Assembly: GCA_039588275.1 (NCBI GenBank)
Contig: JBDHAC010000067.1
Coordinates: 1 to 17,288, forward strand
Length of the DNA stretch: 17,288 bases
Direction: 5' to 3'
Source of the DNA: Gemmatimonadota bacterium
GTDB lineage: Bacteria; Gemmatimonadota; Gemmatimonadetes; Palauibacterales; Palauibacteraceae
Shown here: piece by piece, positions 1,563-17,288 of the stretch
Position numbering within the stretch: the stretch's first letter is position 1
Layout of the letters: the number at the start of each line of letters is the position of its first letter
Position numbers and translations under genes: made by a program
The notes under the pieces: generated by a model
Databases searched by the model: none
What the model was told of the DNA's origin: nothing
What the model saw: only the letters and a program-made list of their open reading frames with translations

Positions 1563-1608
1563 CCGATCATCCCGTGACGCATTGGCGAACCGCCTGCTGA
1601 GGACCCCG

Positions 1609-3279
1609 ATGCCCGCACTGAACCGCACGCATCACCTCGCACGGCTCCGCGAACAGGCGTTCGACCTGCTCGTGATCGGCGGTGGGATCAGTGGCACGGC
1701 CGTCGCTCGTGATGCCGCACGGCGCGGATTCCGCACCGGGCTCATCGAGGCACGTGATTTCGCCGAAGGGACCAGCAGCCGCTCGTCGAGGCTGGTGCAC
1801 GGCGGTCTCCGCTATCTGGAGCACTTCGAATTCGACCTGGTCTTCGAGGCCTCCCAGGAACGCCGCCGCTTGCTTCGTATCGCGCCGCACCTGGTGCGAC
1901 CGCTCGAGTTCCTCTTCCCGATCTTCGAGGAGGGCCGGATCGGCCGGGTGAAGCTGGATGCCGGAATGTGGCTTTACGACGCGCTGTCCCTGTTCCGCAA
2001 CATCGAACGCCACCAGATGCTGGATCGCGACGCGCTGCTGGAGATCGAGCCGCGGCTGCGCAGTGAGGGACTGCTGGGTGGGGCTCGGTACTTCGATGCC
2101 CAGGTGGATGACGCCCGTCTCGTGATCACGACGGCGATCGCCGCGGCGGAGTCGGGTGCTGCCGTGGCCAACCGGGTCGAAGCGAAGGAGATAGACACCT
2201 CGGACTGGCCCGGGCACCGGGTGTTGGCTCGCGATGCCGAGACCGGGTCCGAAGTGCTCATCGACGCCCTCTCGATCGTCAACGCTACCGGGCCCTGGGT
2301 CGACGAAACGCTGCGGCGCGCCGGCGTGAGCACTGACTCGCTCGCCCCGACGCGCGGCACGCACGTGCACATACGCCGCGAGCGGTTGGGTCACTCGCAC
2401 GCGTTCATCTTCGAGTCGCACCTGGATGGACGCATCATGTTCGTCCTGCCGTGGCGTGACCTGACCCTGATCGGAACCACGGACGACTACCACGAAGGTG
2501 TTCCGGAGGGTGTTTCACCGACCGCCGACGATGTTCGCTATCTGCTCGACTCCACGAACCACTTGTTTCCGGAGGCACGTTTGACGGTGGAGGATGTATT
2601 GAGCGCGTGGGCCGGTCTGCGCCCACTCGTGTCGGCCCCCGATGCCGACGTCGGTGCCGGAGAGGGGGACGTGTCCAGGGACTTCACGATTCGCGAGGGG
2701 CCACCCGGCCTGTTCACCCTGGCGGGCGGCAAGCTGACGTCGCACCGAGCGATGGCCGAGGAGACCGTAGATGCGGTGGCACCGCTGCTCGCTCGGGCGG
2801 GTGTGAAGCCGGTCGCGAAGTGCGATACGGCCAGAGTGGCGTTGCCTGGCGGTAGCTTTCGGGACATGGATGAGCTGAAGGCGCACGTGCGAAACGAAGC
2901 GGCTCGGTCGGGCATTCCGGAAGAAGGGGCAGATCGGCTCGCGAGGGCGTATGGCTTGCGCGCCGGGCATGTCCTCGGGCTCGTCCGGCGCCGTGAGGAG
3001 CTGGGCCGACCGATCCTCGAGGGGCGGCCGCACATCGGGGCCGAGGCGATTCACGCGGTGAGATCGGAGATGGCGTTGCACGTCGAGGACGTCCTTTATC
3101 GACGGACGCGAATCGGGCTCGAGACAGCCGCCGACGTCGAGTCGGCGGCCCGGAACGTGGGTGAATTGATGGCTCCGGAGCTTGCATGGACCGGGGTGGA
3201 CGTCGCCGCGGAGGTTCGGCGGGCGGTCGAGGTGCGAGAGCGCGACGACCGAGCGCTACGCGAGCTGGGAGACTCTTGA
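1609..3279 (+). CDS. glpD: FAD-dependent glycerol-3-phosphate dehydrogenase/oxidase, 556 aa
   Basis: FDLLVIGGGISG FAD motif, DFAEGTSSRSSRLVHGGLRYLE, VDDARL, NATGPW, IGTTD, WAGLRPL, GGKLT, RRTR. ATG 1609 has a GAGGA RBS. Confidence 0.92.
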   Translation: MPALNRTHHLARLREQAFDLLVIGGGISGTAVARDAARRGFRTGLIEARDFAEGTSSRSSRLVHGGLRYLEHFEFDLVFEASQERRRLLRIAPHLVRPLEFLFPIFEEGRIGRVKLDAGMWLYDALSLFRNIERHQMLDRDALLEIEPRLRSEGLLGGARYFDAQVDDARLVITTAIAAAESGAAVANRVEAKEIDTSDWPGHRVLARDAETGSEVLIDALSIVNATGPWVDETLRRAGVSTDSLAPTRGTHVHIRRERLGHSHAFIFESHLDGRIMFVLPWRDLTLIGTTDDYHEGVPEGVSPTADDVRYLLDSTNHLFPEARLTVEDVLSAWAGLRPLVSAPDADVGAGEGDVSRDFTIREGPPGLFTLAGGKLTSHRAMAEETVDAVAPLLARAGVKPVAKCDTARVALPGGSFRDMDELKAHVRNEAARSGIPEEGADRLARAYGLRAGHVLGLVRRREELGRPILEGRPHIGAEAIHAVRSEMALHVEDVLYRRTRIGLETAADVESAARNVGELMAPELAWTGVDVAAEVRRAVEVRERDDRALRELGDS

Positions 3280-3773
3280 GGACCGCACCGGCCAGTCCGT
3301 GGCTCGGGGTCTGGCTGGCAGCGGCCGCCGGGTGCGGGCCAGCCCCCGAGGACACGGCGGGAGCCCCTGGCGCCGTCACCGTCGACACGAACATAGGCGG
3401 CATCGACTCACCGAACGACAGCGGTCCATTTGGTGCTTCGCCCACCGGCACCCCACCACCCGCGGACGCGGCGGGGGAGCCAACGCCCTTCCCGGACCTG
3501 GACGGAGAGACGGCCCTTCGCACCTACGAGCTCTGGATCGTGAACCGATCGCGTATGGACCTGCTTGTATATGCGAGCGCCGGGGCGGGCCGGGTGACTT
3601 TGGACACGGTGCCCGGTCGCGATTCGGTCAGAGTGAACGTCCAGGTCAGAGCCCGGAGCCTCAGCCTCGACGCCGAAGACGCGGACGGGCGAACGATCGG
3701 CTCCACGATACTGGAGCTCGCGCCCGCCTCGTCCAACCGATGGGAGATCGTGGGGCCCGGAGGCGTGCGGTAA
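3276..3773 (+). CDS. Hypothetical lipoprotein, about 165 aa
   Basis: TTG at 3276 overlaps the glpD TGA (TTGA), with GGGAGA upstream. MRTAPASPWLGVWLAAAAG|C lipobox, Pro/Gly/Asp linker, beta-rich C-terminal domain (LWIVNRSRMDLLVYA...). Confidence 0.7.
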   Translation: MRTAPASPWLGVWLAAAAGCGPAPEDTAGAPGAVTVDTNIGGIDSPNDSGPFGASPTGTPPPADAAGEPTPFPDLDGETALRTYELWIVNRSRMDLLVYASAGAGRVTLDTVPGRDSVRVNVQVRARSLSLDAEDADGRTIGSTILELAPASSNRWEIVGPGGVR

Positions 3774-3890
3774 CGGGGGAGGAGCCCCGGTGGCCGCGAA
3801 TGAAGGAGGCAGCGCGGGACGGTGGGCGCTTGTACGCGCCGAGCACCCCGCTTATCCTCGGTCGGATCTGTGTCCACCTACGGAGGATCG

Positions 3891-5267
3891 ATGGCAGTGA
3901 CGGGCCCTGAGAGCCGCGCCACCTGGGGGTCGAAGGCCGCGTTCATCCTCGCCGCGGCGGGGAGCGCGATCGGCCTCGGCAACATCTGGGGATTCCCCAC
4001 ACAGGCCGGGAGGAACGGCGGCGCCGCCTTCCTGGTGCTCTACCTGATCGCGGTGGCCCTCATCGGAGCCCCGGTGATGCTTGCCGAGCTCGTGGTAGGC
4101 CGAAAGACGCTGCGCAACCCGGTCGGCGCCTTCAAGCAGCTCGCGCCGAAGACCGCCTGGTATGTGTTGGGCGGGTTCGGCGTGCTCGCCGGCGTGTTGA
4201 TCCTCAGCTTCTACAGCGTCATCGCGGGATGGACCGTGGCCTACATCGTCAAGGCGGTCACCTGGACATTCCGCGGCGAGGTCGATGCGGCCGCGATATA
4301 CGCCAGCGTGTCGGCCAGGCCGCTCCCGGCCATCGGCTGGCACCTGCTGTTCATGTGTGTCACGGTGTGGGTCGTGTTGGGCGGCATCCGGCAGGGCATC
4401 GAGCGGTGGACGAAGGTGCTCATGCCGGTCCTATTCGCCCTGCTCGTACTCCTGGCGCTGAGAGCGGTCACGCTACCGGGCGCGGCGAACGGGCTCGACT
4501 TCTACCTGAGGCCGGACTTCAGCGCCGTCACCGGAGGAGTCATCGTGAACGCGGTCGGACAGGCGTTCTTCTCGATGAGCCTCGGGATGGGCGCGATGAT
4601 CACGTACGGCTCCTACGTATCGAAAAGGGACGATCTGGTGTCGTCCGCCGCGTGGGTCACGGGTGCCGATACCCTGATCGCGATGCTGGCCGGGCTGATC
4701 ATCTTCCCGACCCTGTTCGCTTCGGGATTCGATCCCTCGGTCAGCGGTCCCGGGATGGTGTTCGTGGTGCTTCCATCGCTTCTCGCTTCGATCCCGCCCG
4801 AGCCGTACGGCGGTCTGATCTTCGGTACCGGCTTCTTCGTGCTGCTGGGAATCGCGGCGCTCACCTCGAGCATCTCGTTGCTCGAGGTCGGGGTGACATG
4901 GGCCGTCGACGAGCGGCGCATCTCGAGGAAGAAGGCGGCGATCACGCTGGCGATCATCGCGTTCGTGGTGGGGATCCCCAGCGCTCTGGCGAACGGGGCC
5001 GTCCCCTGGCTGACCTCGCTCCCGGGCATCGAGCTGGACTTTCTGACCTTCATGTTCACGATCTTCGGCGTATTCGCCTTGATCGTGGGAGCGTTGCTGA
5101 TCAGCCTGTTCGTGGGTTGGTACTGGGGGGTCGCGAACGCCGGCGAGGAGGTGAGGGCAAACGACGGGAAATTCCCGCTCGGCAGGACATGGTCCTTTCT
5201 GATACGCTGGCTGTGTCCGGTGGCGCTAGCCGGCGTACTGATCAACAATCTCGTCCAGACCTTCTGA
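3891..5267 (+). CDS. Sodium-dependent transporter, neurotransmitter:sodium symporter (NSS/SLC6) family, 458 aa
   Basis: RATWGSK..FILAAAGSAIGLGNIWGFP..AGRNGGAAF, GQAFFSMSLGMGAMITYGSY, AALTSSISLLE; many TM helices; GGAGG RBS before ATG 3891. Confidence 0.95.
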   Translation: MAVTGPESRATWGSKAAFILAAAGSAIGLGNIWGFPTQAGRNGGAAFLVLYLIAVALIGAPVMLAELVVGRKTLRNPVGAFKQLAPKTAWYVLGGFGVLAGVLILSFYSVIAGWTVAYIVKAVTWTFRGEVDAAAIYASVSARPLPAIGWHLLFMCVTVWVVLGGIRQGIERWTKVLMPVLFALLVLLALRAVTLPGAANGLDFYLRPDFSAVTGGVIVNAVGQAFFSMSLGMGAMITYGSYVSKRDDLVSSAAWVTGADTLIAMLAGLIIFPTLFASGFDPSVSGPGMVFVVLPSLLASIPPEPYGGLIFGTGFFVLLGIAALTSSISLLEVGVTWAVDERRISRKKAAITLAIIAFVVGIPSALANGAVPWLTSLPGIELDFLTFMFTIFGVFALIVGALLISLFVGWYWGVANAGEEVRANDGKFPLGRTWSFLIRWLCPVALAGVLINNLVQTF

Positions 5268-5941: not shown

Positions 5942-6157
5942 TCATTCACTCGCCCGATTCACCGCGTCGAACTCGAGGCTTGAGTGCGACCCATCGCAGA
6001 ACGGCTTGTTCCGGGACCCGCCACAGCGGCAGAGAGCGATAGACGGCCGCCCTGCCGTGTCCCAACAGTTGCCCTCCGCGTCCACCACTTCGGCGGCCCC
6101 TTTGACCAGGTACGGACCGTTGTCCAGGATCGTGATCACGACACCCTCGTCGCTCAT
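5942..6157 (-). CDS. CDGSH iron-sulfur domain protein, 71 aa
   Basis: MSDEGVVITILDNGPYLVKG...IALCRCGGSRNKPFCDGSH carries the NGPY and C-x-C-x8-CDGSH motifs. GGAAGGAG RBS before ATG 6157. Confidence 0.95.
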   Translation of the reverse strand: MSDEGVVITILDNGPYLVKGAAEVVDAEGNCWDTAGRPSIALCRCGGSRNKPFCDGSHSSLEFDAVNRASE

Positions 6158-6252
6158 CTGAGACTCCTTCCAACTTTCGAACGCACTCGACAGATACACA
6201 CCATCGGCGGACACTTTGTCCCCCGAATGAATCGCGTTCAGCGAGGAGGCGT

Positions 6253-7590
6253 TCACTCTTCACGCGTAAGGCGGTAGATGAGCAGCGCCGCCCTGACGGT
6301 GGCCGTCCTGAGCGAACCCAGCTCGACGCTCTCCTCGATGGTGTGCCCCCCGTCGCCAAGCGGTCCCAGCCCCGCTAGCCCATCGACGTACGGCGCCACG
6401 AAAGAGATGTCCGCCGCGCCTCGCGCCCCGGGATCGACGGCATCGACGGCGCCGAGCCCCAGATCGCGACTGACCTCATCGAACAACTCGAACAGGCCCC
6501 GGTTCCCCGCCGTCGGCGGCATGGCGGGATACCCGTCACGGAACTCGATCTCGGCTGAGGTTCCCGGTAGGTGGTCGCCCACGATCTCGCGCATCTTCGA
6601 CCTGGCCCGTTCCTTCTGTTCTTCGCTGATGAAGCGCAGTCCACCATCCACGACGACGGTCTGCGCGATCACGTTCGTCTTCCCGAACGAGGTGCCGCGG
6701 TTGAACGCCGGGTCATATTCCACGTCCGTACCGCCGAGCATCACACCGGGATTGAACGTCAAGTACTCCTCGCCACGCACGTTCTCGTGAAACGCGTTCA
6801 GGATGCGAGCGGCCTCGAAGATGGCGCCGCTCCCGTAGTGCTCGCCGAAGATCTGCGATGAGTGGCCACGGGTGCCCGTGACCCTCAGCGTCCAACCGCT
6901 CGACCCGCGGCGCGCGACGGTCGCGGAGTTGGCGCTCCCCACTCCGCCCTCGAACCCGAGCGCGACGTCCGCCTCGATCCCCGCTTCGATCAGATCGCGT
7001 CGGCTGATCTTGATCGGGTGCCCCGGACTCTCCTCGTCCCCGATGAGCGCCACCGTGATCGAGGTGCCCGCCAAAACGCCGGCCGCGTGCAGGGCCTTGA
7101 GGGCGTACAGGATCACGAGGTTTCCCCCCTTCATGTCCTCCACGCCCGGACCGCGCGCCGTGTTGCCTTCGCGCTGGAAGCGCTGGAAGGGGCTGTCCTC
7201 TTCGAACACCGTGTCGAGGTGTCCGATCAGCAGGATCTTCTTGCCGCGTTCGCCGTTCCGCTCGGCGAACAGGTGCCCCGCGCGGTTCACCTGGGCGGGC
7301 ATGTCGATCCAGCGCACCGCGAAGCCGAGCTCTTCGAAGTACGGCTCGAGCGCACGACCGACCGCCCGCACGCCAGCATGGTTCATGGTGCCGCTATTCA
7401 GGTTCACGCTGTGCTCGAGCATCGCGATCGCCTCCTCGGCGTCGGAGTCGACGTGCTGAACGATGCGTCGCTCGACGTCCGTGAGACCTTGCCCGACCGC
7501 GTCGCCGGTAGCGCCCGTGAGCAGTGCGATACAGAAGCAAACCGGTCGAGCTCCCTGTATAGCTCGGACGCCTGCAGGTACAGATCGCAT
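6253..7590 (-). CDS. Exported M20/M25/M40 metallo-hydrolase (carboxypeptidase G2-like), 445 aa
   Basis: GHLDTVF, GPGVEDMKGG, GDEE, FEGG, GHSS, GGHTIEE metal and catalytic motifs; N-terminal signal-like segment; GGAG RBS before ATG 7590. Confidence 0.92.
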   Translation of the reverse strand: MRSVPAGVRAIQGARPVCFCIALLTGATGDAVGQGLTDVERRIVQHVDSDAEEAIAMLEHSVNLNSGTMNHAGVRAVGRALEPYFEELGFAVRWIDMPAQVNRAGHLFAERNGERGKKILLIGHLDTVFEEDSPFQRFQREGNTARGPGVEDMKGGNLVILYALKALHAAGVLAGTSITVALIGDEESPGHPIKISRRDLIEAGIEADVALGFEGGVGSANSATVARRGSSGWTLRVTGTRGHSSQIFGEHYGSGAIFEAARILNAFHENVRGEEYLTFNPGVMLGGTDVEYDPAFNRGTSFGKTNVIAQTVVVDGGLRFISEEQKERARSKMREIVGDHLPGTSAEIEFRDGYPAMPPTAGNRGLFELFDEVSRDLGLGAVDAVDPGARGAADISFVAPYVDGLAGLGPLGDGGHTIEESVELGSLRTATVRAALLIYRLTREE

Positions 7591-7807
7591 TCGATTCTCC
7601 ACGTTTCGGACCGCCCGGATGGCGAGCCGACGCAGTATGGGGGGGAGACGAACGCGCGGCCACTGACGCGCCGGCCCGAACACCAGCCAGGTCCCGCTCG
7701 AACATCATCCAGAACTTTGGCGGGGCGAGCGGGTTATGTTGAAGGTCACATCACGGTCGGGAAGCGGTTCCGGGGGACGGTTCGTGACAGGTCAACGAGG
7801 ATCTCGC

Positions 7808-8980
7808 ATGCCGCGAAGCTCCCCACGATCCAGACAGCGCTGGCTTCTGGGCTCGGTGTGGCTCGTACTCGCCGGTTGTGGAGATTCGATCTTCGACCCG
7901 GTGGCCAACTGCAGTATCCCGGCGGACGCCCTGGTGGATGGCGGCACCGATCGCAGCTCGATCCCCGCGCTGGCCAACCCGGGGGTCGCTCGCATGTTCG
8001 ATCCGAGAGTCGGCTTCATCGGTTTGGACGAACGCGTGATCGGGATCGAGTTCAACGGCCAGCCTCTCGCGATCCCGCACCAGATCCTGTGGTGGCACGA
8101 GGTCGTGAACCTGGCGGTCCCCGGCCAGGAGCTCACGGTCACGCACTCGCCGCTCACCGGCTCGAGCATGATCTTCGACCGCCTGGGGACCGGTGTGGGC
8201 GAATTCACCGTCTCGAAATACGTGGTGGACAGCAACCTCGTGCTCGAGGATGAGACCGGCTCCTTGTGGCCCCAGCTGAGTCGTGCCGCACGCTGTGGAG
8301 CCAAGGACGGCCTGAGCCTCAAGTTGGTCCCACACCAGGAGGTTACCCTGAGGGGTTGGACCCTTCAGCACCCCGATACGTGGATCGTCCACCGCGCCAC
8401 CGGCTTCGAGTTCCTGTACACGCTGTACCCGTACGGTGACTACGAGGAGCAGAATGCCCGTTTTCTGTATCCGGTCGGGAGCGTAGATCCTCGCCTTCCG
8501 GCAAAGGAGCGTGTGCTCGGCGTTTCGTCGGGGGCCGGCGGCATCGCGCTCGCGCTCTCGGGATTGGGCCAGACCGCGGCCGCGGAGGGCGTCGCGGTGT
8601 GGGCCGAGAACGTCACCGTGGCGGGCGAGCCGATCGTCGTCTTCTGGAACTCGCTCTTCCGAGGCGCCGTGGCGTACCGATCGGCGGTGAACGGGCAGGA
8701 GCTCACCTTCCGCGTCGAGAACGGCGAGCGGGTCGACCAGGAGACCGGTTCGATCTGGGTGTTCGACGGGCAGGCGATCGAAGGCCCGCTGGATGGGGAG
8801 CGACTCGAGCCGGTTCGGGACGCGCACGTCTCTTTCTGGTTCGCGTGGGCCAAGTTCCAGCCCGCCACGGAGGTCTGGTCGCCACCAACACAGGCTTCCA
8901 TCGGAGCGCCGCTCGCCCCGCTCACGGAAGCCCTTCGAGCGGCCGCGCTCGAGGATGTGGAACCCGCCCGCCCGAACTGA
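7808..8980 (+). CDS. DUF3179-domain lipoprotein (Cys/Sec-less variant), 390 aa
   Basis: Lipobox LAG|C. IPALANP, IPHQILWWHEVVN, VTHSPLTGS, SNLVLEDETGSLWPQ, KERVLG, DQETGSIW, FWFAWAKFQPAT resemble DUF3179 as recalled. GAGGA RBS before ATG 7808. Confidence 0.82.
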   Translation: MPRSSPRSRQRWLLGSVWLVLAGCGDSIFDPVANCSIPADALVDGGTDRSSIPALANPGVARMFDPRVGFIGLDERVIGIEFNGQPLAIPHQILWWHEVVNLAVPGQELTVTHSPLTGSSMIFDRLGTGVGEFTVSKYVVDSNLVLEDETGSLWPQLSRAARCGAKDGLSLKLVPHQEVTLRGWTLQHPDTWIVHRATGFEFLYTLYPYGDYEEQNARFLYPVGSVDPRLPAKERVLGVSSGAGGIALALSGLGQTAAAEGVAVWAENVTVAGEPIVVFWNSLFRGAVAYRSAVNGQELTFRVENGERVDQETGSIWVFDGQAIEGPLDGERLEPVRDAHVSFWFAWAKFQPATEVWSPPTQASIGAPLAPLTEALRAAALEDVEPARPN

Positions 8981-8992
8981 GCGTTTCGCAGG

Positions 8993-9018
8993 GGAACCCT
9001 CGTCAAGCTACCCGCGTT
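8993..9018 (+). promoter_or_regulatory. ECF (SigR/SigH-type) promoter GGAAC-N18-GTT
   Basis: GGAAC 8993-8997, 18-nt spacer, GTT 9016-9018 (context CGTTCT), upstream of the propeller-TlpA gene. Confidence 0.65.
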
Positions 9019-9134
9019 CTCGATCGGTCGACGTGGATAGGCCGGTACACCCCTCGAATCGGAGGGGTCGGAGTCCGGTTCGGGACACGGTGGACGGGCC
9101 GCCCTGACATGGCACACGGACAAGAGACTCAGCG

Positions 9135-10760
9135 ATGAGACACATGCTTCAGCGATGGGGCTCCGGGAGATTCGGCGACCACACGGCAACTCTCCTGATC
9201 GCCCTGCTGACCGCGGGAGCCGTAACGGGCTGTCGTGACGTCCCGGACCTGCCGGCGGCAGGCCCGTATCCCGACGAACGGCCGCCGGTCACCGTCGAGC
9301 CCGGCTTCCTCGAATACACCACGCCGAGCGAGTCGTTGTACGTCCATCCTCTCCCCGAAGATGAACGGCTCTCTCTCCTGTTCTATCGCGGCCGCGGGGT
9401 CGCCCGCGATGGGCAGAACGCCGCGTACGTCGCCGACGCGGATGGCAGCCGCGTCCTCGTGATCGACGACCGCCTCAGGGTGACCCGAACCGTGGGCGGT
9501 CCGAATCCCGAGCAGGGTCCCTTGGGCCTGCCGCTCTCGGTTGCACCAACGTCGGAGGGGGCCGTGTTCGTCGTGGATGTTGAGCACCCTGCGGGCCTGC
9601 TCTACTTCGACGAGAGCGGGTCGTACGTCGGTGCGGCGGAGCCTCCCGTGATGAATGGCAACGTGCGCGCCGACTCGGATGGCTACCTGTGGGCGGCGCG
9701 CTCGCCGTATATCCTCGGCTTCGAGCCGACGGACGCCGAGCAGCCGCTGCTCTATCGGTTCGACCCCCTGGCGGGCGAGGGCGTGGGGATCGCCGCCATC
9801 GAGGCGTCGGCAGCACCGATGTGGAATCGGCTCGCGAACGCGGGCTCGATCGCCATCGGTCCCGAGGGGCGGGCCTACTTCGCGCATCTGCTCCGAAACG
9901 AGATCCGCGCGTACACGGCGGAGGGCGATTTGCTGTGGCGGGTACGCCGGTCGCTTCCCTTCGAGACGGTGGACGGGATCCAGCTCGGCCCTGAGGACGG
10001 GCAGGTGGTCCGCCTGCGTCCCGTCACTCAGGCGCTGGCGGTGGGCCCGGACCGCCTGCTGTACGCCCTCACCGCCACGGACCCGCCCGCCCAGCCCGGA
10101 CAGGAGGCGGAGAAGGATGCGGTGCGCCGAATCGAGGTCTACGATCCGGCTACCGGCCGCCTGCTTCGGGCCACCACCATGCCCGCGGCGTGGGCGACGT
10201 TGGCCGCGGACGAGGGGGGGCGCGTCTATCTGGCCGATGCCGAGGCGATCGACGCGTCCGCGCCAGCGCCGGAGCGGGCTCCGCTCCCGGCCTTCTCCTT
10301 CGAGACGTTCGCCGGCAAAACGGCGGCGTTCGCCGATTACAGAGGGAAGGCGTTGCTCGTGAACGTGTGGGCCAGCTGGTGCGGTCCATGCCGCGAGGAG
10401 CTTCCCCGGCTCAAGAAATACTACGAGACGCTCGACCGTGAGCGGGTCGAATTCCTGGCACTGTCGGATGATGTGGACGAGGCGGCGGCCCGCGGGTTCG
10501 CTGATCCGATGGAACTCCCGTTCCCGCTCTTCCTCGGTCACGGCGAGATCCAGGGACACCTGAACTACATCGGCCTACCGTACACCCTGATCGTGGACTA
10601 CCGCGGCCGTGTCGTCGAGGAGATCTACGGGTTCGGCAGCCAGGAGAGCTGGGAGCTGCTGACCTCGACGCTCGAGCGGGAGATGGAGCGCGTCACCGTG
10701 GACGAGCCGGGTGAGCGCTCCGGTCACGCGGGTGAGGACTCCGGTCACGAGCACGAATGA
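9135..10760 (+). CDS. Lipoprotein: NHL-like beta-propeller fused to a C-terminal TlpA/ResA-type thioredoxin domain, with a His-containing tail
   Basis: Lipobox VTG|C. Propeller-like repeats (RGVARDG..AYVAD...RVLVID; PLSVAPTSEGAVFVVD; IAIGPEGRAYFA; LAVGPDRLLYAL; LAADEGGRVYLAD). YRGKALLVNVWASWCGPCREELP and GLPYTLIVDYRGRV. Start could be ATG 9135 or 9144. Confidence 0.88.
   Translation: MRHMLQRWGSGRFGDHTATLLIALLTAGAVTGCRDVPDLPAAGPYPDERPPVTVEPGFLEYTTPSESLYVHPLPEDERLSLLFYRGRGVARDGQNAAYVADADGSRVLVIDDRLRVTRTVGGPNPEQGPLGLPLSVAPTSEGAVFVVDVEHPAGLLYFDESGSYVGAAEPPVMNGNVRADSDGYLWAARSPYILGFEPTDAEQPLLYRFDPLAGEGVGIAAIEASAAPMWNRLANAGSIAIGPEGRAYFAHLLRNEIRAYTAEGDLLWRVRRSLPFETVDGIQLGPEDGQVVRLRPVTQALAVGPDRLLYALTATDPPAQPGQEAEKDAVRRIEVYDPATGRLLRATTMPAAWATLAADEGGRVYLADAEAIDASAPAPERAPLPAFSFETFAGKTAAFADYRGKALLVNVWASWCGPCREELPRLKKYYETLDRERVEFLALSDDVDEAAARGFADPMELPFPLFLGHGEIQGHLNYIGLPYTLIVDYRGRVVEEIYGFGSQESWELLTSTLEREMERVTVDEPGERSGHAGEDSGHEHE
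10710..10749 (+). repeat. Imperfect 21-nt tandem duplication encoding GERSGHA/GEDSGHE
   Basis: GGGTGAGcgCTCCGGTCACGc followed by GGGTGAGgaCTCCGGTCACGa at the 3' end of the TlpA fusion gene. Confidence 0.6.
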
Positions 10761-10775
10761 ACCGACGTGGCCCTG

Positions 10776-10801
10776 GGAACCGAATCCCGGGGCTCCTTGT
10801 T
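10776..10801 (+). promoter_or_regulatory. ECF (SigR/SigH-type) promoter GGAAC-N18-GTT
   Basis: GGAAC 10776-10780, 18-nt spacer, GTT 10799-10801 (GTTG), upstream of ATG 10877. Confidence 0.65.
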
Positions 10802-10876
10802 GTGACGATTACGAACAGGATGAATCGGCTACCGAGAAGGCCGAAGACCGTGGGACTGACACCCGAAGGAGGACGG

Positions 10877-11263
10877 ATGAAGTCGAAGGGGCTAACCCTG
10901 GCCGCCGTGGCCGCCGCCGGTGCTTTGATCGCATCGCCGGTGCAGGCGCAGGAGATGGAGATGCCTGAGCCCCAGACGGTGACCGCAAAGGTCATCGACA
11001 TGGCGTGTTACATCAACGCCGGGCTGACGGGCGACGATCACAAGATGTGCACCGAGGTTTGCGCCAAGGCCGGCGTGCCCCTCGTGTTCCTCACGGACGA
11101 CGGTGGCATCCTGCTGCCCACGGGCATGGGCATGCCCAGCACCGGTCAGAACGAAAAGCTGATCGAGTTCGCCGAGCAGAAAGTCGCGGTTACGGGCCCG
11201 GTCGTGGAGCGCGCGGGCGCGCGTTCGATCATCGTACAGAAGATCGAAAAGGCGGGTTACTAG
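10877..11263 (+). CDS. Secreted 128-aa protein with C-X10-H-X2-C-X3-C motif, probable OB-fold metal-binding protein
   Basis: AAGGAGGA RBS. Signal peptide MKSKGLTLAAVAAAGALIASPVQA|Q; VIDMACY...GDDHKMCTEVCAKAGVP; C-terminal KVAVTGPV...IIVQKI strands. Fold is inferred. Confidence 0.85.
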   Translation: MKSKGLTLAAVAAAGALIASPVQAQEMEMPEPQTVTAKVIDMACYINAGLTGDDHKMCTEVCAKAGVPLVFLTDDGGILLPTGMGMPSTGQNEKLIEFAEQKVAVTGPVVERAGARSIIVQKIEKAGY

Positions 11264-11283
11264 CCACCCGCGATCATCCGACT

Positions 11284-11340
11284 CCGAGGGCGTGGCCCTC
11301 GGTCGAGACCGGGAAGAGGGGGGCTGGGCCCCCCTCTTTC
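11284..11340 (+). terminator. Tandem hairpins; the second is a likely intrinsic terminator
   Basis: CCGAGGGC-gtg-GCCCTCGG (11284-11302) and AAGAGGGGGGC-tgg-GCCCCCCTCTT (11314-11338), followed by TCGTT. Confidence 0.7.
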
Positions 11341-11378
11341 GTTCGGTGGGTCCCTTACGCCACGAGCACCGGTTCGGT

Positions 11379-11404
11379 TGAACCGACGCGATCCTGGAAG
11401 CGTT
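11379..11404 (+). promoter_or_regulatory. ECF promoter TGAAC-N18-GTT upstream of the sigma/anti-sigma pair
   Basis: TGAAC 11379-11383, 18-nt spacer, GTT 11402-11404. Context CGTTCT is identical to the -10 at 9015-9020. Confidence 0.6.
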
Positions 11405-11468
11405 CTTCAAGTGCGAGCGTGAAGGTCACGCCGACGTGAGATCATGAGACCGGGAGGCTCGGCGAGCG

Positions 11469-12071
11469 GTGAAGGCAACAGAGACGTTCGAGGAGAGGGT
11501 CAGCCGTTCGCTGAACGCACTCTCGGATGGCGCTCGGCTCCTGACGGGAAACCCCGACAGAGCCGATTCGCTCGTGGTGAGCGTCGTGGTGGATGCCTCT
11601 CGGGTCTACGCTCGTTCGGAGGTCGACGGAGATTTCGGTAAGTGGATTGTAGGGCGCATGGTGAAGCAGTATCTGGACTATCTGGACGGGACGGGCGGAT
11701 GGCCGGAGGATGAGCCGGTCCGGTCGCCCGATGCGCTGGAGCGATTCACCCACTCGTCGGAGAGCGACGTGGACGCCATGCTCCGGGGAATGAGCGCCCT
11801 GGAGGCCGGCGACTCCGACCGGCTGGGTCACCTGATCAGATCTGCCATGGGGCAACTCGGTCTGCTCGAGCGGACCGTCCTGTGGCTGGTCAACGTGATG
11901 GGGTTCAGCTACGCGGAGACGTCCGCCGTGGTAGGGCTGAATCCGATTGAGCTGCGCGACACGCTCCTTCGGGCACGACGCGAGCTTCAGGCCCGCCTCG
12001 CGATCGCGTTGCAGCGGGAAGTGAGCGCGGACGACTCGAAGCTCGGTTGGGGAGGGCTTGGCGGTGCCTGA
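11469..12071 (+). CDS. Divergent ECF sigma-70-family factor (sigma-like protein), 200 aa
   Basis: Region-2-like ARLLTGNPDRADSLV...FGKW and region-4-like AMGQLGLLERTVLWLVNVMGFSYAETSAVVG...LLRARRELQARL. Overlaps a downstream anti-sigma gene. Several consensus residues are replaced. Confidence 0.8.
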   Translation: MKATETFEERVSRSLNALSDGARLLTGNPDRADSLVVSVVVDASRVYARSEVDGDFGKWIVGRMVKQYLDYLDGTGGWPEDEPVRSPDALERFTHSSESDVDAMLRGMSALEAGDSDRLGHLIRSAMGQLGLLERTVLWLVNVMGFSYAETSAVVGLNPIELRDTLLRARRELQARLAIALQREVSADDSKLGWGGLGGA

Positions 12072-12864
12072 GAACGCGCGTCGAACCTCCGAGTGCGACG
12101 AGGTCCGCGAGCTCCTGTGGCCGATGGATCGACCGCGGGAGTACGTAGAGGGCGAGGAGGAGGCTCGCGTTCACCTGGAGCGCTGCCCGGCGTGCCAGGC
12201 GTTCTTCCGCCGGGATGCGGCCATAACGGCGACGCTTCGACGCCAGGGCGTTCAGGTGCACGCGCCACAGGCTTTGCGTGAGCGGGTGTTCGACGCCCTC
12301 GCACGCGAGCGGGCGCTGGGGCCCGGATCGCGCTCCGAGCCCTCTTCCCCCGCTTGGCTGTCCCGTCTGGTGCCGTTGGGAGCGGCCGCTGCGGTCGTAC
12401 TCCTGATAGGGGTCGGGCTGTTAGGTACGCCTGGAAACGAAACAGCGACGCGCGGTGAGGCGGCGGAAGGGACCTACGTCCAGGATTTTCTCAGTCGGGC
12501 GGTCGAGGCCGACGTCGTCGAGTTCCCGGAGCCGGAGGCCGTGACGGCCTTCTTCATGCGCGAGCTCGGCATCCATGTGGAGCCGATCGCCCTCGAAGCC
12601 GGCCGCATGAACCGGGCGATGATCTGTCTCATCGAGGGCGAGCGCGCGGCGATGGTCGAGTACGAGATCGAGGGGCGCACCATCGCGCACTACCTGGTTC
12701 CGGTTGCCGGTGAGACGGTGAAGCCGTCGGATGTACGGTCCGGCTCAGAGGCCGGCGTGCAGGTCGTGAGCTGGTCGGACGGCCGCTTCGAGCACGCGCT
12801 CGTCTCTGACCTCTCCGAATCAGATCTCACGGACCTCGCTCGCACCCGGTTCGCCACGCGTTGA
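12064..12864 (+). CDS. Transmembrane zinc-binding anti-sigma factor (ZAS/zf-HC2), about 266 aa
   Basis: CDEVRELL...HLERCPAC (Hx3Cx2C), APQALRERV, one TM helix (LVPLGAAAAVVLLIGVGLLG), extracytoplasmic C-terminal domain. GTG 12064 follows GGGAGG and overlaps the sigma stop. Confidence 0.9.
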   Translation: MPENARRTSECDEVRELLWPMDRPREYVEGEEEARVHLERCPACQAFFRRDAAITATLRRQGVQVHAPQALRERVFDALARERALGPGSRSEPSSPAWLSRLVPLGAAAAVVLLIGVGLLGTPGNETATRGEAAEGTYVQDFLSRAVEADVVEFPEPEAVTAFFMRELGIHVEPIALEAGRMNRAMICLIEGERAAMVEYEIEGRTIAHYLVPVAGETVKPSDVRSGSEAGVQVVSWSDGRFEHALVSDLSESDLTDLARTRFATR

Positions 12865-13041: not shown

Positions 13042-14268
13042 ATGCGAAGCTCCATATCGTCGGGTGGGGCCGATTCCCCTCTGAACGCCGGAGAGTCGTT
13101 CCCCGTCCCCGCGTTGCGCACCCGGCGCTTCTGGGCCGTATACACCGCCGCCTGGGTCGCGTACGCTGGGCTGTTCGGCTTCGGTGTCGCCTCGGAGGGG
13201 GTCGACGTCGACATGGCCGTGCTCGGCGCGGTCGGGAACGTCATCGTGCCGGGCCTGCTGGGCATCGCCCTCCTTCGATTCCAGATACCGAGCCGCTGGA
13301 CCGGATCCGGTGCCTGGTTTCGGCTCGCGGCGACGGTAGGGACGTGTCTCGGCTTCGTCGCGTTGGCCACGCTGGGCACGGAGTTGGTGTTCCTGCTCCT
13401 CCGACCGTTATACGCGAGCCGCACCGAGTGGACGTTCAACCTCGTCGTCCTCGTGTGGCGGTCCATCATGAACGTGCTGGCGTTCGTGGTCCTCGCCAGC
13501 GTGCAACAGGCGATCGTCTCGTCCGCGAGGCTCCGCGTCCACGAGCGGCGTACTGCCCGGGCCGAGGCCCTGCGGGCGCGAGCCGAGCTCGAGGCACTCC
13601 GGGCACGATTCAACCCGCACTTCGTGTTCAACACATTGCATTCCCTCATCGCGCTGGTGCGCACCGATCCGGAGCGGGCCGAACAGGCGATCGAGGAAGT
13701 AGCGGCGCTCATCCGATACGCTTCCCGTCTACAGCGCTCCCAGGTCGACGAGGTCCCGCTCGAGGAGGAGTGGCGGTTCGCCGAGAACTACCTCGCGCTA
13801 GAGTCGCTCCGCCTGGGGGACCGATTGCGCGTTCGACACGAGATAGATCCGGCGGCCATGGATGCACCGGTCCCGGTCTTCACGCTCCAACCGCTGGTCG
13901 AGAACGCGGTGCGCCACGCCGTGGCCCCACGCGCGGATGGGGGCACGATCGCCATCACCGGGACGACGGCGGGCAGCCACCTCGAACTGCACGTGAGCGA
14001 TGATGGACCGGGTAACGACCTTCGCGCCGTGGACGCATCGTCGGGCCAGGGTCTCCGTCTCCTGCGACAGAGGCTGACGGCTCTCTACGAGGACCGCGCG
14101 GAGCTGCGGATCGAAACGAGTCCGGGTGGCGGCTTCCATGTCTCCCTCCGGCTCCCGCTCGACAGCGAAGCTCACCCCGATGACGGCGGTGCGGGGCTGG
14201 CGGATGACACCGTTCGGACCGGGCCCACCGAGGCGGGGGCCGACCCTCACGCCGCGAGGAACCCGTGA
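13042..14268 (+). CDS. LytS/YehU-type membrane sensor histidine kinase
   Basis: About 4 TM segments, then LRARFNPHFVFNTLH (H box), LQPLVENAVRHA (N box), DDGPG, GQGL. Start uncertain: ATG 13042 chosen, 12943 possible. Confidence 0.9.
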   Translation: MRSSISSGGADSPLNAGESFPVPALRTRRFWAVYTAAWVAYAGLFGFGVASEGVDVDMAVLGAVGNVIVPGLLGIALLRFQIPSRWTGSGAWFRLAATVGTCLGFVALATLGTELVFLLLRPLYASRTEWTFNLVVLVWRSIMNVLAFVVLASVQQAIVSSARLRVHERRTARAEALRARAELEALRARFNPHFVFNTLHSLIALVRTDPERAEQAIEEVAALIRYASRLQRSQVDEVPLEEEWRFAENYLALESLRLGDRLRVRHEIDPAAMDAPVPVFTLQPLVENAVRHAVAPRADGGTIAITGTTAGSHLELHVSDDGPGNDLRAVDASSGQGLRLLRQRLTALYEDRAELRIETSPGGGFHVSLRLPLDSEAHPDDGGAGLADDTVRTGPTEAGADPHAARNP

Positions 14269-15002
14269 TTCGCGCGCTGCTGGTCGAAGACGAGCCGCTC
14301 GCGCTTCAATCCCTGCACGAGCTTCTGGCCGAGGTGGACTGGATCGAGGTCGTCGGCGAGGCGCGCGACGGCCGAACCGCGGTGCGGCTGATCCAGAAGC
14401 TGGAACCCGATCTCCTGTTCCTGGATGTACAGATGCCCGAGCTCAACGGGATCGAGGTGCTCGAAGAGATCACGCACCGGCCTGCCGTCGTGTTCACCAC
14501 AGCGTACGACGAGCACGCGGTGACCGCTTTCGAGCTCGGGGCGACCGATTACCTGGTCAAGCCGTTCGGCCGCAAGCGGTTCGAGGACACGCTGACCCGG
14601 GTCCGCGAGCACCTGGCGGATGAGCGGTGGACCGAATCGGCCGTCGAGCGGGCGGCGCGGGCGCTGCGCGAAGGTCCCGTCGACAGGATCTTCGCACGCA
14701 AGGGCCGCAAGATCGTCCCTGTTCCCGTGGATTCCGTGGTTCGCATCGAGGCGGGGCGGAGCTACGTCACCCTGAAGACGGCCCAGGAGGACTTCCTGCT
14801 CGGCGTCACGCTCGTCGACCTGGAAGCGCGTCTCGATCCGCGACGCTTCCTCCGCGTGCACCGGTCGCACATCGTGAACCTCGACCATCTCGTCGCGCTC
14901 GAGCCCTACGATGACCGACGCCTCCTCGTCCGTCTCGACGACGACTCCTCCGTAATCGCCAGTCGGGCCGGCTCGCGCGTGCTCCGCAGCCTGGTCGCGT
15001 AG
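14265..15002 (+). CDS. LytTR-family response regulator, 245 aa
   Basis: Receiver VEDE...FLDVQMPELNG...FTTAYDEHA...DYLVKP and LytTR FLRVHRSHIVNL...SR. GTGA overlap with the kinase stop. Confidence 0.95.
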   Translation: MIRALLVEDEPLALQSLHELLAEVDWIEVVGEARDGRTAVRLIQKLEPDLLFLDVQMPELNGIEVLEEITHRPAVVFTTAYDEHAVTAFELGATDYLVKPFGRKRFEDTLTRVREHLADERWTESAVERAARALREGPVDRIFARKGRKIVPVPVDSVVRIEAGRSYVTLKTAQEDFLLGVTLVDLEARLDPRRFLRVHRSHIVNLDHLVALEPYDDRRLLVRLDDDSSVIASRAGSRVLRSLVA

Positions 15003-15290: not shown

Positions 15291-17288
15291 GTGAAGCTTT
15301 CGGACATATCGATTCGCCGGCCCGTTCTCGCCAGCATGATGAGCACGGCGCTCGTCCTGTTCGGCGCCATCGCCTTCGGGCGACTGTCCGTGCGCGAGTA
15401 TCCGGACACCGACTCGCCGATCATCTCGGTGAGCGTCGTGTTACCCGGTGCGAACCCGCGCGTCATCGAGTCGACGATCACGGACATCCTCGAGGAAGAG
15501 CTCGCGACCATCGAGGGGATCCGGACGTTGACGAGCGCGAGCGCCGAGCAATCGGCGAACATCACGATCGAGTTCCACCTCACGCGCGAACTCGAGGCGG
15601 CAGCGCAGGACGTGCGCGACAAGGTCGCCCGCGTCCGGGGCCGGCTCCCACAGGACATCCTGGAGCCCGTGGTCGCGAAGGTGGACAACGACGCGCAGCC
15701 GTTCTTCTGGCTCGCGCTCTCGGGCGAGAACTACACGCTGATGCAGCTGTCAGACATTGGCGATCGGCAGGTGAAGACCCGCCTCCAGAGCCTGCCCGGC
15801 GTGGGGAGCGCGCAGGTGTTCGGCGAGCGCCGCTACTCGATGCGCGTGTGGCTCAGGGCCGCGGAGCTAGCCGCCCGCGGGCTCACGGTGCAGGACGTCG
15901 AGGCGGCGATCCGGAGTCGCAACGTGGAGGTGCCGGCCGGCCGGATCGAGTCGCAGCGGCGCGAGTTCACGGTGCGCTCTCTGGGCGAGCTCAAGACCGC
16001 CGGGGAATTCGGCCGCATGGTCGTCTCGACGCAGAACGGACAGGTCGTGCGGCTCAGCGACGTGGCCCGGGTGGAGCTGGGGCCGGAGGATTACCGCAGC
16101 GCGTTGCGCTTCAACGGGATCACCGCGGTCGCGGTCGGGGTCGTCCGGCAGTCGAAGGCCAACCTGATCGAGGTGTCGGACGGGATCCGGGGGGAGCTCC
16201 CCGCCATCCAGGCTTCGTTGCCGCCGGGCGTGTCGCTGGACCTCGCCTTCGACGGGGCCGACTTCGTGCGCACCTCGATCCGCGAGGCGGAGGACACGCT
16301 GATCCTGGCGGGGATCCTCGTGGTGTTCATCATCTTCGTCTTCCTGCGCAACCTGCGTGGCACCTTGATCCCAGGGCTCGCCATCCCGACGTCGGTCGTG
16401 GCGGCGTTCGGGCTCATGTACATACTCGGGTTTACGATCAACAACCTGACGCTGCTCGCGCTCATCCTCGCGATCGGGATCGTGGTGGACGACGCGATCA
16501 TCGTGATGGAGAACGCGTTCCGGCACCAGGACGAGCTGGGGGAGGACCCGACCACCGCCGCGCTGCACGGGACGCGCGAGATCGCGTTCGCCGTGATCGC
16601 CACCACGGTGGCACTGGTCGCCGTGTTCTCGCCCCTCGCGTTCCTGCAGGGGACCACGGGGCGGCTGTTCAACGAGTTCGGGATCGCGATGGCCGGGGCC
16701 GTCGTGGTCTCCTCGTTCGTCGCGCTGAGCCTGACGCCCATGCTGTGCGCGAAGATCCTTCGCGTGCGGCGTTCCCACGGGCGCGTGTACAACTCGCTCG
16801 AGCGCGGCTTCCAGGCCGTCGCCAACGGGTACGGAGTGGCGCTGCGTTGGGCCCTCGGGCACCGCAAGACCGTAGTCGCCGCGGGTGTGGCCTCGATCGC
16901 GCTCGCGGTCGTCGTCTTCAACCAGCTGGAGCGCGAGTTCGTACCACCCGAGGACCGCGACTTCTTCATCATCTTCACCGTCGGTCCGGAGGGATCGACG
17001 CTCGAGTACACCGACAGCTACCAGCGACAGGTCGAGGCCGTGCTCGCGCGCACGCCGGAGGTGGACCAGTACTTCAGTCTGGTCGGGGGGTTCGTCCCCG
17101 TCTCCAGCGGCATCGCGTTCGTGAAGCTGGTCGACATCGACGAACGAGAACGGGGCGTCGAGGAGATCCTCGCAGAGGTGCGCCCGCAGCTGTTCGGGAT
17201 CCCGGGCGTGTTCGCCTTTGCCAGCAACCCGCCCGCGTTCGGGTTTGGGAACCCGGTGAACTTCGTCGTCCGACACCCGGACTTCGAC
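15291..17288 (+). CDS. RND efflux transporter permease subunit (AcrB/MdtB-like; partial, runs off the right edge)
   Basis: Manual translation from GTG 15291: MKLSDISIRRPVLASMMSTALVLFG...LSVREYPD...PGANPRVIESTITDILEE...; TM4 GIVVDDAIIVMEN with the proton-relay DD; LSLTPMLCA. Appears open to the end of the window (666 codons). Confidence 0.95.
   Translation, partial: MKLSDISIRRPVLASMMSTALVLFGAIAFGRLSVREYPDTDSPIISVSVVLPGANPRVIESTITDILEEELATIEGIRTLTSASAEQSANITIEFHLTRELEAAAQDVRDKVARVRGRLPQDILEPVVAKVDNDAQPFFWLALSGENYTLMQLSDIGDRQVKTRLQSLPGVGSAQVFGERRYSMRVWLRAAELAARGLTVQDVEAAIRSRNVEVPAGRIESQRREFTVRSLGELKTAGEFGRMVVSTQNGQVVRLSDVARVELGPEDYRSALRFNGITAVAVGVVRQSKANLIEVSDGIRGELPAIQASLPPGVSLDLAFDGADFVRTSIREAEDTLILAGILVVFIIFVFLRNLRGTLIPGLAIPTSVVAAFGLMYILGFTINNLTLLALILAIGIVVDDAIIVMENAFRHQDELGEDPTTAALHGTREIAFAVIATTVALVAVFSPLAFLQGTTGRLFNEFGIAMAGAVVVSSFVALSLTPMLCAKILRVRRSHGRVYNSLERGFQAVANGYGVALRWALGHRKTVVAAGVASIALAVVVFNQLEREFVPPEDRDFFIIFTVGPEGSTLEYTDSYQRQVEAVLARTPEVDQYFSLVGGFVPVSSGIAFVKLVDIDERERGVEEILAEVRPQLFGIPGVFAFASNPPAFGFGNPVNFVVRHPDFD

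Follow-up and report, generated by a model that had tools for sequence, protein, structure and literature searches.

The stretch of DNA analysed here (the window) comprises 17,288 nt of contig JBDHAC010000067.1 of the Gemmatimonadota assembly GCA_039588275.1 (genome G000 in our set), and coordinates given without a contig or locus label refer to it. Five open reading frames (ORFs), all on the + strand, lie at 7808..12864 as first described, and their positions, lipoboxes, cysteine motifs, transmembrane helix and outer cysteine are all as the first-pass annotation of this DNA had given them. Gene 1 (7808..8980) encodes a DUF3179 lipoprotein of 390 aa (PF11376, E 4e-64); gene 2 (9135..10760) encodes a propeller-TlpA lipoprotein of 541 aa with NHL and TlpA/ResA profile matches and a WCGPC motif; gene 3 (10877..11263) encodes a secreted small Cys3His OB-fold protein of 128 aa with no match to a Pfam family; gene 4 (11469..12071) encodes a pseudo-sigma of 200 aa, with the sigma2/sigma4 fold of ECF (extracytoplasmic function) sigma factors, its promoter and core residues being mostly gone; gene 5 (12064..12864), whose reading frame overlaps that of gene 4 by 8 nt, encodes a membrane ZAS anti-sigma of 266 aa with a zinc site, one transmembrane helix and an outer cysteine, C188. 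The thiol-stress theme under which the first-pass annotation had grouped these genes is likely to hold. For their regulation we consider it somewhat probable that the cluster forms part of the regulon governed by a SigH/SigR-like sigma factor, the gene for which lies in another part of the genome, and that gene 4 is a decoy which binds zinc anti-sigma proteins and not DNA.

The promoter motif (G/T)GAACC-N17-GTT, reported before genes 2, 3 and 4 by the first-pass annotation, was confirmed on the + strand at 8993..9018 (GGAACC-N17-GTT, by pattern and matrix), 10776..10801 (the top-scoring site of the genome) and 11379..11404 (TGAACC-N17-GTT, by pattern, before genes 4 and 5), and it is conserved in relatives, with (G/T)GAAC-N18-GTT kept 5' of the orthologs. 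A doubtful near-match on the same strand precedes gene 1 (7712..7735), with a spacer one base short, and is missed by the strict pattern; in locus L193 the exact motif stands at -62 of the gene 1 ortholog. Since the pattern GAAC[CT]-N17-GTT has 99 matches on both strands of 4.1 Mb, three occurrences in these three upstream gaps exceed chance, and a matrix built only from 14 sites in relatives placed the gene 3 site first and the gene 2 site second among the 41 intergenic upstream matches of the genome. The SigH consensus of Mycobacterium tuberculosis consists of a -35 element GGAAYA and a -10 element GTT, with a best spacer of 17 bp (bioRxiv 10.1101/534826), and the cluster motif equals this consensus down to the 17-bp spacer. 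Among 34 loci carrying a gene for the Cys3His protein, the motif lies within 260 nt of the start of the gene 3 match in 18, against 0 to 4 for other spacer lengths. A consensus scan alone placed a terminator-like hairpin between genes 3 and 4 (11318..11335, + strand); therefore, the cluster is probably not a single operon but several units with a common promoter type, genes 4 and 5 probably forming a transcription unit apart from gene 3. Elsewhere in the genome, the motif also stands 5' of genes that were labelled, from reading their sequences, as TlpA-like (C4:69485), peroxiredoxin-like (C22:28136), DoxX-like (C1:3794) and Fpg-like (C6:75586); these are possible further regulon members and, as a set, amount to no more than chance.

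Gene 4 has as its best solved relative the SigH protein of M. tuberculosis (E 6e-19), with both sigma2 and sigma4 folds; its matches to ECF families are weak and fall below every cut-off (TIGR02937, 26.4 of 42.9 bits; PF08281, 25.5 of 25.7 bits), and the Pfam search gave no sigma2 match. The roles of individual SigH residues in melting and reading the -10 element and in reading the -35 element have been described (bioRxiv 10.1101/534826), and gene 4 departs from active ECF sigmas in both sets: the -10 positions T76, N77, W81, I85, N88 and N92 are G, D, W, R, K and D in gene 4, while T179, S182, R183, H185, R186 and R188 of the -35 helix are E, D, T, L, R and R, so that the equivalents of W81, R186 and R188, together with that of Y166, are retained. 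Seven DNA-contact positions were scored across the family (W81, I85, T179, S182, R183, R186 and R188, picked post hoc as invariant in the intact set); all seven are kept by 13 of 13 SigH-like proteins and by 10 of 10 intact partner sigmas, whereas the 26 pseudo-sigmas keep between none and five and gene 4 keeps three. S182 and T179 are each retained in 2 of the 26, and the residues of the recognition helix vary freely among gene 4 orthologs. The D..QE residues of region 2.2, which we take to be core-binding, are S, V and S in gene 4; across the pseudo-sigmas the D is kept in 3 of 26 and the Q in 11 of 26, ten members of a second family retaining both Q and E. The description of gene 4 as a pseudo-ECF is thus borne out by the loss of promoter-contact residues, and on these sequence grounds the protein is very probably not an active sigma factor.

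The gene is nevertheless maintained as a coding sequence. Open frames of gene 4 orthologs occur in 26 genomes of five families, invariant residues are present across 28 aligned sequences of the gene 4 type, and the ratio of nonsynonymous to synonymous substitution rates (dN/dS) against the same-genus ortholog is 0.28, with 0.07 to 0.21 for the neighbouring genes, denoting purifying selection. Twenty-five of the 26 pseudo-sigmas form one branch (support 99/98) beside the intact partner sigmas, that of L134 standing apart on a long branch, and the ortholog in L090 exceeds the TIGR02937 cut-off. Gene 4 is a single-domain ORF without a receiver domain; its 26 orthologs span 166 to 221 aa as cut, and no longer fused forms were found at E<=1e-10, which is weak evidence. 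The AlphaFold model is confident (predicted local distance difference test score, pLDDT, 88.6) and compact, with template modelling scores of 0.53 to 0.60 to anti-sigma-bound sigmas and PhyR's sigma-like domain and of about 0.3 to polymerase-bound SigH, a predicted form that counts as weak evidence.

The first-pass annotation had proposed a self-contained circuit. This proposal is not supported, both because gene 4 lacks most promoter-reading residues and because another contig carries the gene of a fitting sigma factor together with that of a separate soluble anti-sigma. A family search located this intact SigH/SigR-like gene at G000:C11:19041-18469; its product carries all seven scored DNA-contact residues, and its stop codon is overlapped by a gene for an 82-aa soluble ZAS protein (contig C11, 18472-18224) with residues C11, H37, C41 and C44. 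For the pair, the best families are TIGR02947, at 174 bits against a cut-off of 251.55, and TIGR03988, at 43 bits against 62.5. By analogy, we infer that the SigH-like protein would be released from this anti-sigma on disulfide stress. A DUF3179 gene of the CPLC type lies divergent from the SigH-like gene with the motif in between (L072, G000:C11:18224-20499), and the motif stands at -202 of the sigma gene, with a variant at -94, as well as at -72 in L071 and at -169 in L194. Counted over related genomes, which are not independent, a SigH-like match at E<=1e-60 is present in 24 of 26 pseudo-sigma genomes and in 22 of 23 genomes with an anti-sigma lacking any upstream sigma, against 122 of the 301 class genomes taken together; the remaining two pseudo-sigma genomes have weaker SigH-like and RsrA-like pairs. 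In one genus of 28 genomes, SigH occurs in three, two of which also have the anti-sigma. Physical linkage is a stronger argument than co-occurrence for a coupling of SigH to the pseudo pair: the SigH and RsrA genes directly adjoin it in L120, L123 and L194. The stretch in L194 brings together genes for a peroxiredoxin-like protein, the pseudo-sigma, the membrane anti-sigma, RsrA, SigH, the Cys3His protein, the propeller-TlpA and two DUF3179 proteins, with the motif at three places. This Longimicrobiales locus (L194:1326-9835) holds the whole circuit; its second DUF3179 gene and the peroxiredoxin-like gene look frameshifted or split.

Gene 5 combines the arrangement C11...H37-x3-C41-x2-C44 with one hydrophobic helix (residues 96 to 125, approximately) and C188 as its sole outer cysteine, and hhalign identifies its ZAS domain as an RsrA homolog (97%). 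A profile search of 301 genomes of the class yielded 65 places in 60 genomes, of which 59 were read and six, partial matches in G007, G028, G049, G108 and G193, were left out. Ten of these 59 anti-sigma loci have an intact ECF gene upstream, 26 a degenerate one and 23 none; the last group, the orphans, includes L125, where an ordinary ECF gene lies on the opposite strand, and the counts include L140 and L141, long-branch anti-sigmas whose family membership is doubtful. The H, C and C of the zinc site are present in 59 of 59 loci and the first cysteine in 57, while the outer cysteine is present in 24 of the 26 anti-sigmas paired with a pseudo-sigma, in 20 of the 23 orphans and in 4 of the 10 paired with an intact sigma. 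Of the 23 orphan anti-sigma genes, 18 have the pattern GAAC-N18-GTT on their 5' side; it precedes the pseudo-sigma gene in 6 of 24 cases and the intact pair in none of 9 (the latter two being the loci with enough upstream DNA), and other spacers give at most 1. A tree from which the truncated L131 was excluded nests the orphans among the pseudo-paired anti-sigmas, with 7 changes of state, at least 4 of them forced by well-supported branches. An anti-sigma made from a SigH-type promoter in the absence of its own sigma would most simply act on SigH. The intact sigma/membrane anti-sigma pairs in L122, L124, L126 and L136 are flanked by a gene for a conserved 160-aa membrane protein without a Pfam match, and DUF3179 genes flank the intact pairs in L124, L126, L129 and L136.

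Conservation within the pseudo-sigmas varies with the type of predicted contact. Using modelled contacts as the interface map, we compared 24 pseudo-sigmas, a set without gene 4 and the ortholog from its own genus, with 23 active sigmas by mean within-group BLOSUM score. At 32 predicted anti-sigma-contact positions the score was 2.36 for active and 2.32 for pseudo-sigmas; it fell from 3.57 to 1.31 at 16 DNA-contact positions and from 4.63 to 1.25 at three core positions. The shift between interface and DNA-contact conservation has a permutation p of 0.003, computed on columns that are not independent. When gene 4 was modelled together with the RsrA-like protein, the complex scored 0.81, the best of 3 controls scoring 0.00; this mark was attained by 116 of 157 solved pairs and by 2 of 215 mismatched pairs, and the runs gave a contact agreement of at least 91% and a partner pLDDT of at least 80. 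This pass may reflect no more than likeness to solved sigma/ZAS complexes. Taken with the conservation data, the models indicate that gene 4 keeps its predicted anti-sigma-binding surface while most DNA-reading residues are lost. A like pattern has been reported for PhyR (PMC8103513, PMC4598750).

On these data, gene 4 probably has its effect in the SigH circuit by binding anti-sigma proteins. A plausible course of events begins with cytoplasmic thiol stress, which would free SigH from RsrA and let it transcribe the cluster; genes 4 and 5 would be made together, and the ZAS domain of gene 5 would keep gene 4 at the membrane until an envelope signal on gene 5, either oxidation of the conserved Cys188 or proteolysis, lets gene 4 go. 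Free gene 4 would then bind RsrA, so that more SigH is freed and the cytoplasmic sensor gains an envelope input; in genomes that have lost gene 4, SigH itself would be held by gene 5. As the output, the propeller-TlpA, anchored by its lipid and supplied with electrons by CcdA/DsbD, would maintain the cysteine trio of the OB-fold protein in the reduced state, in which these residues and His55 would bind a soft metal (Cu or Zn). We give somewhat under an even chance to the activating relay at the centre of this scheme, in which gene 5 releases gene 4 on an envelope signal and gene 4 strips RsrA from SigH. More tentative still is the wider proposal that the system constitutes a second, independent case of sigma mimicry, in which the SigH regulon took over a former ECF/membrane anti-sigma pair as an outer-cysteine relay with the propeller-TlpA and Cys3His OB-fold proteins as its output. 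If these proposals are true, a single sigma factor would respond to thiol stress in either the cytoplasm or the envelope (OR logic), lineages without the decoy would work with a double brake (AND logic), the intact, decoy and orphan stages would all be extant in living genomes, and the dedicated output would be a new metal-handling pair of propeller-TlpA and Cys3His OB-fold protein.

Several observations weigh against a decoy in the SigH circuit, and they concern (i) the promoter, (ii) the regulators in other genomes, and (iii) the modelled interface. The exact motif lies directly 5' of only the 6 of 24 pseudo-sigma genes counted above and of none of ten from the second family, and it shows no genome-wide enrichment, with 14 upstream matches against 3 to 13 for other spacers and a likewise unenriched matrix scan; regulon membership accordingly rests on conservation of the motif at these genes, and the call of a large regulon was rejected. 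The C11 SigH-like protein scores below the TIGR02947 cut-off. Genomes with an intact pair also carry more distant SigH-like/RsrA-like pairs, so that the presence of SigH alone fails to separate the pairing states, and the genomes behind the co-occurrence counts are related; an apparent lack of SigH in intact-pair genomes (5 of 6 at E<=1e-60) was rejected on account of those distant pairs. The nesting of orphans in the anti-sigma tree means that gene 4 was lost several times and is therefore dispensable, among the six genes for which dN/dS was measured (0.07 to 0.28) it has the highest value, and the ten second-family pseudo-sigmas might still touch core polymerase. As for the interface, what was modelled is the general anti-sigma surface, which does not discriminate between RsrA and gene 5 as the actual partner; close relatives of the true partner also pass the complex-model test, and the conservation of the interface is equally explained by gene 4 binding gene 5 alone. 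Zinc in most ZAS domains is structural (PMC4598750), and the binding of Cu or Zn by gene 3 is predicted from its ligands and its linkage.

The main rival, which we regard as unlikely, keeps gene 5 in the SigH circuit and takes gene 4 out of contact with RsrA: gene 5, induced by SigH, would act on SigH as a second brake, and the part of gene 4 would be limited to titrating gene 5, tuning the strength or delay of this negative feedback. The 23 orphan loci, 18 of them with a SigH-type promoter, need a sigma in trans, and the homology of the gene 5 ZAS domain to RsrA, the 8-nt overlap of genes 4 and 5 and the repeated loss of gene 4 all fit such an arrangement; against it, a 1:1 decoy would cancel the brake with which it is co-expressed, and the complex model of gene 4 with RsrA passed, subject to the caveat of likeness given above. 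The other explanations are less likely than this one. Gene 4 could be a relic of an ancestral sigma displaced by SigH, serving only to keep gene 5 folded or harmless on its way to deletion. The gradient from intact to pseudo to absent partners, the several losses, the long branches and the highest dN/dS measured would be expected of such decay, which we nonetheless hold to be improbable, as the frame is open in 26 genomes of five families, the dN/dS of 0.28 and the invariant residues in 28 sequences speak of constraint, the predicted fold is confident (pLDDT 88.6), and one surface is selectively conserved.

A stable membrane complex of genes 4 and 5 could alternatively dock a third signalling protein, with no bearing on SigH release, and the LytS/LytTR-like pair 3' of gene 5, here and in the same-genus genome, would be a candidate; the other orthologous loci read do not have this pair next to gene 5, a conserved third gene was not observed, and the orphans have no gene 4 at all, which makes this scaffold quite improbable. 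Least probable is an active role for gene 4 as a diverged ECF sigma, set free by gene 5 and able to read the three promoters, as a self-contained circuit would have it. The classical sigma/anti-sigma gene order, the motif 5' of gene 4 and the retained equivalents of W81, R186 and R188 are what one would expect of an active sigma, but the equivalents of I85, N88, T76/N77, T179, S182, R183 and the region-2.2 D, Q and E are lost, the recognition helix varies freely among orthologs, the same promoter persists where the anti-sigma has no upstream sigma, and an intact SigH-like protein that fits the motif is at hand.

Turning to the genes that the SigH-like sigma would control, gene 2 carries a lipobox at Cys33, an NHL-type beta-propeller recognized by profile (best E 4e-12; the Pfam NHL family is weak on these proteins, matching 1 of 18 members) and a TlpA/ResA-like domain with WCGPC, whose best solved matches are ResA and TlpA. 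The protein thus has the features of the TlpA/ResA group, namely a CxxC thioredoxin domain that is exported and anchored, and WCxPC is invariant in 18 of 18 aligned orthologs. Two genes of the CcdA/DsbD family are present in the genome (PF02683 matches over the cut-off). Of the 301 class genomes, 41 have propeller-TlpA; 34 of these 41 also have SigH and 20 the anti-sigma, and 40 of 60 anti-sigma genomes gave no match to propeller-TlpA; the regulator pair and the effector pair are therefore separable. In genome G009, the genes directly 5' of the propeller-TlpA gene (L064:1732-8234) resemble a nitrous-oxide reductase (nos) cluster, and a link to copper is possible.

Gene 3 displays the motif C44-x10-H55-x2-C58-x3-C62, which is present in 34 of 34 loci. 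Its family is large and unnamed (1,641 clusters at E<=0.001), and among 159 aligned domains from the best 150 matches the ligands are conserved at 90% (C44), 76% (H55), 92% (C58) and 94% (C62). The model (pLDDT 79.8) is a five-stranded barrel of the OB type, into which two helices bearing the ligands are inserted behind the first strand. Fold searches returned generic OB folds only, with E 8e-4 for the top Foldseek match and, for VIA, a best Z of 7.3 at an rmsd of 2.6 A across 71 residues, and therefore no function for gene 3 follows from its fold; CusF/SilF-like chains score only Z 5.2 to 5.5, and the Atlas searches gave unnamed clusters, DUF3379, and DUF5818 at 0.85, which serves as a lead only. 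Some family members are tandem two-domain proteins (P0018, P0019, P0028 and P0036), with the Cys and His ligands replaced in some domains. A gene for a YtkA-like lipoprotein lies directly 5' of the Cys3His gene in four loci (L185:4339-4830, L189:4314-4874, L198:4421-4969 and L209:4427-4945), and a YtkA-like domain is fused to Cys3His in protein P0027; these neighbours and the fusion lean towards metal handling by the gene 3 family. Judged from their linkage, there is about an even chance that the TlpA domain of gene 2 serves the Cys3His protein.

The first-pass annotation had credited gene 1 with a thiol link of the DUF3179 kind, which the sequence contradicts. DUF3179 has been tabulated as a selenoprotein family with a UxxC/T motif (PMC9312934, PMC13188914); gene 1, with its lipobox at Cys24, has SPLT where the family has CPLC or CPLT, and because of this replacement it is unlikely to be redox-active. 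SPLT is common to gene 1, its same-genus ortholog and the copy in L193, the other copies having CPLC or CPLT. In one genus (L191, L192, L195, L196, L198 and L200), a split or shortened pair of DUF3179-like genes lies 3' of the propeller-TlpA gene, the second part beginning right after the stop codon and bearing a CNT motif.

Co-occurrence of the five genes, which the first-pass annotation had taken as one module, holds in part. The 34 Cys3His loci are all from Gemmatimonadota, near to the query, and many of their flanks end at contig ends. Propeller-TlpA adjoins the Cys3His gene in 32 of them, both exceptions being second copies, while DUF3179-like genes occur in 15 (9 long and 6 partial matches), which makes gene 1 a looser member of the regulon. 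The anti-sigma is present in 12, the pseudo-sigma in 12, and both lie within 5 kb in 11. The two pairs thus stand as associations, and the full set of five does not: all five parts within 5 kb of the Cys3His gene are found in only 2 of 34 loci (L194 and L208), L184 being a third just past the flank.

Sigma mimicry and ECF12 regulation are each already known, and it is against these that the present system should be compared. PhyR's sigma-like domain is degenerate for promoter and core binding and works as an anti-anti-sigma (PMC8103513, PMC4598750); PhyR is the sole sigma mimic named in the accessible portions of two reviews and of the ECF classification. Gene 4 resembles the PhyR-NepR-EcfG system (ECF15, Alphaproteobacteria) in this degeneracy for DNA and core binding. 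It differs in having no receiver domain and in deriving from a SigH-related ECF, in being paired with a membrane ZAS anti-sigma and not with NepR (for which no genome-wide search was made), and in its mode of control, which would be release from a membrane protein instead of phosphorylation; binding has been shown for PhyR and is modelled for gene 4. The C11 pair is similar to SigR-RsrA of Streptomyces and SigH-RshA of Mycobacterium (ECF12) in its best-matching families, in the soluble ZAS gene at +1 and in its DNA contacts, and the cluster is similar in its promoter (GGAAC-type -35, GTT -10 and 17-bp spacer) and in its thiol-reducing targets; however, the pair falls below both curated cut-offs, and a second, membrane anti-sigma with a pseudo-sigma under the same promoter goes unmentioned in the accessible part of PMC7826278, where only one ECF12 subgroup with transmembrane anti-sigmas is described. 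Among membrane anti-sigmas, RsiW of SigW shares a ZAS domain and a transmembrane helix with gene 5 (a weak profile match, E 0.002), and OsrA of EcfF has a conserved cysteine needed for sigma release under peroxide (PMC3420878), a Cys-dependent mode like that proposed for gene 5. Both RsiW and OsrA hold an active cognate sigma, whereas the neighbour of gene 5 is inactive or absent. Gene 2, for its part, is like TlpA, ResA and StoA in its anchored thioredoxin-like domain with WCxPC, but is fused to an NHL-type propeller, falls below each NCBIfam cut-off and is linked to an OB-fold Cys3His protein without a described counterpart in the libraries searched. The combination of a receiver-less decoy and a membrane anti-sigma in ECF12 regulation was not found in the literature outside subscription journals or in the accessible part of PMC7826278, and no work on ECF/anti-sigma pairs of Gemmatimonadota was found in the former.

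If the proposed mechanism is true, a stand-alone mimic under its own membrane anti-sigma would show a dead sigma turned into a signalling part, and an envelope signal wired into a cytoplasmic redox switch. Genes of the gene 4 type are annotated as sigma factors, and regulon predictions made for them would be wrong. With four small regulatory proteins and one defined promoter, the circuit lends itself to reconstruction in a laboratory strain, and the Cys3His OB-fold family gains its first candidate partner enzyme and regulator.

The surroundings of the cluster are mostly ordinary. The LytS-like histidine kinase and LytTR response regulator genes 3' of gene 5 (window 13042-15002, + strand) occupy this position only here and in the same-genus genome among the loci read. 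A small gene for a CDGSH iron-sulfur protein of the NEET type lies at 5942-6205 (- strand), and one is near the module in L063, L064 and L193 also, which is probably local synteny; CDGSH proteins also use a 3Cys-1His site. The remaining neighbours (534-5267, + strand; 6253-7590, - strand; 15867-17288) include a zinc-type dehydrogenase, a glycerol-3-phosphate dehydrogenase, a secreted protein, an SNF-family symporter and an M20 peptidase, and the window ends in a + strand gene that resembles one for RND efflux.

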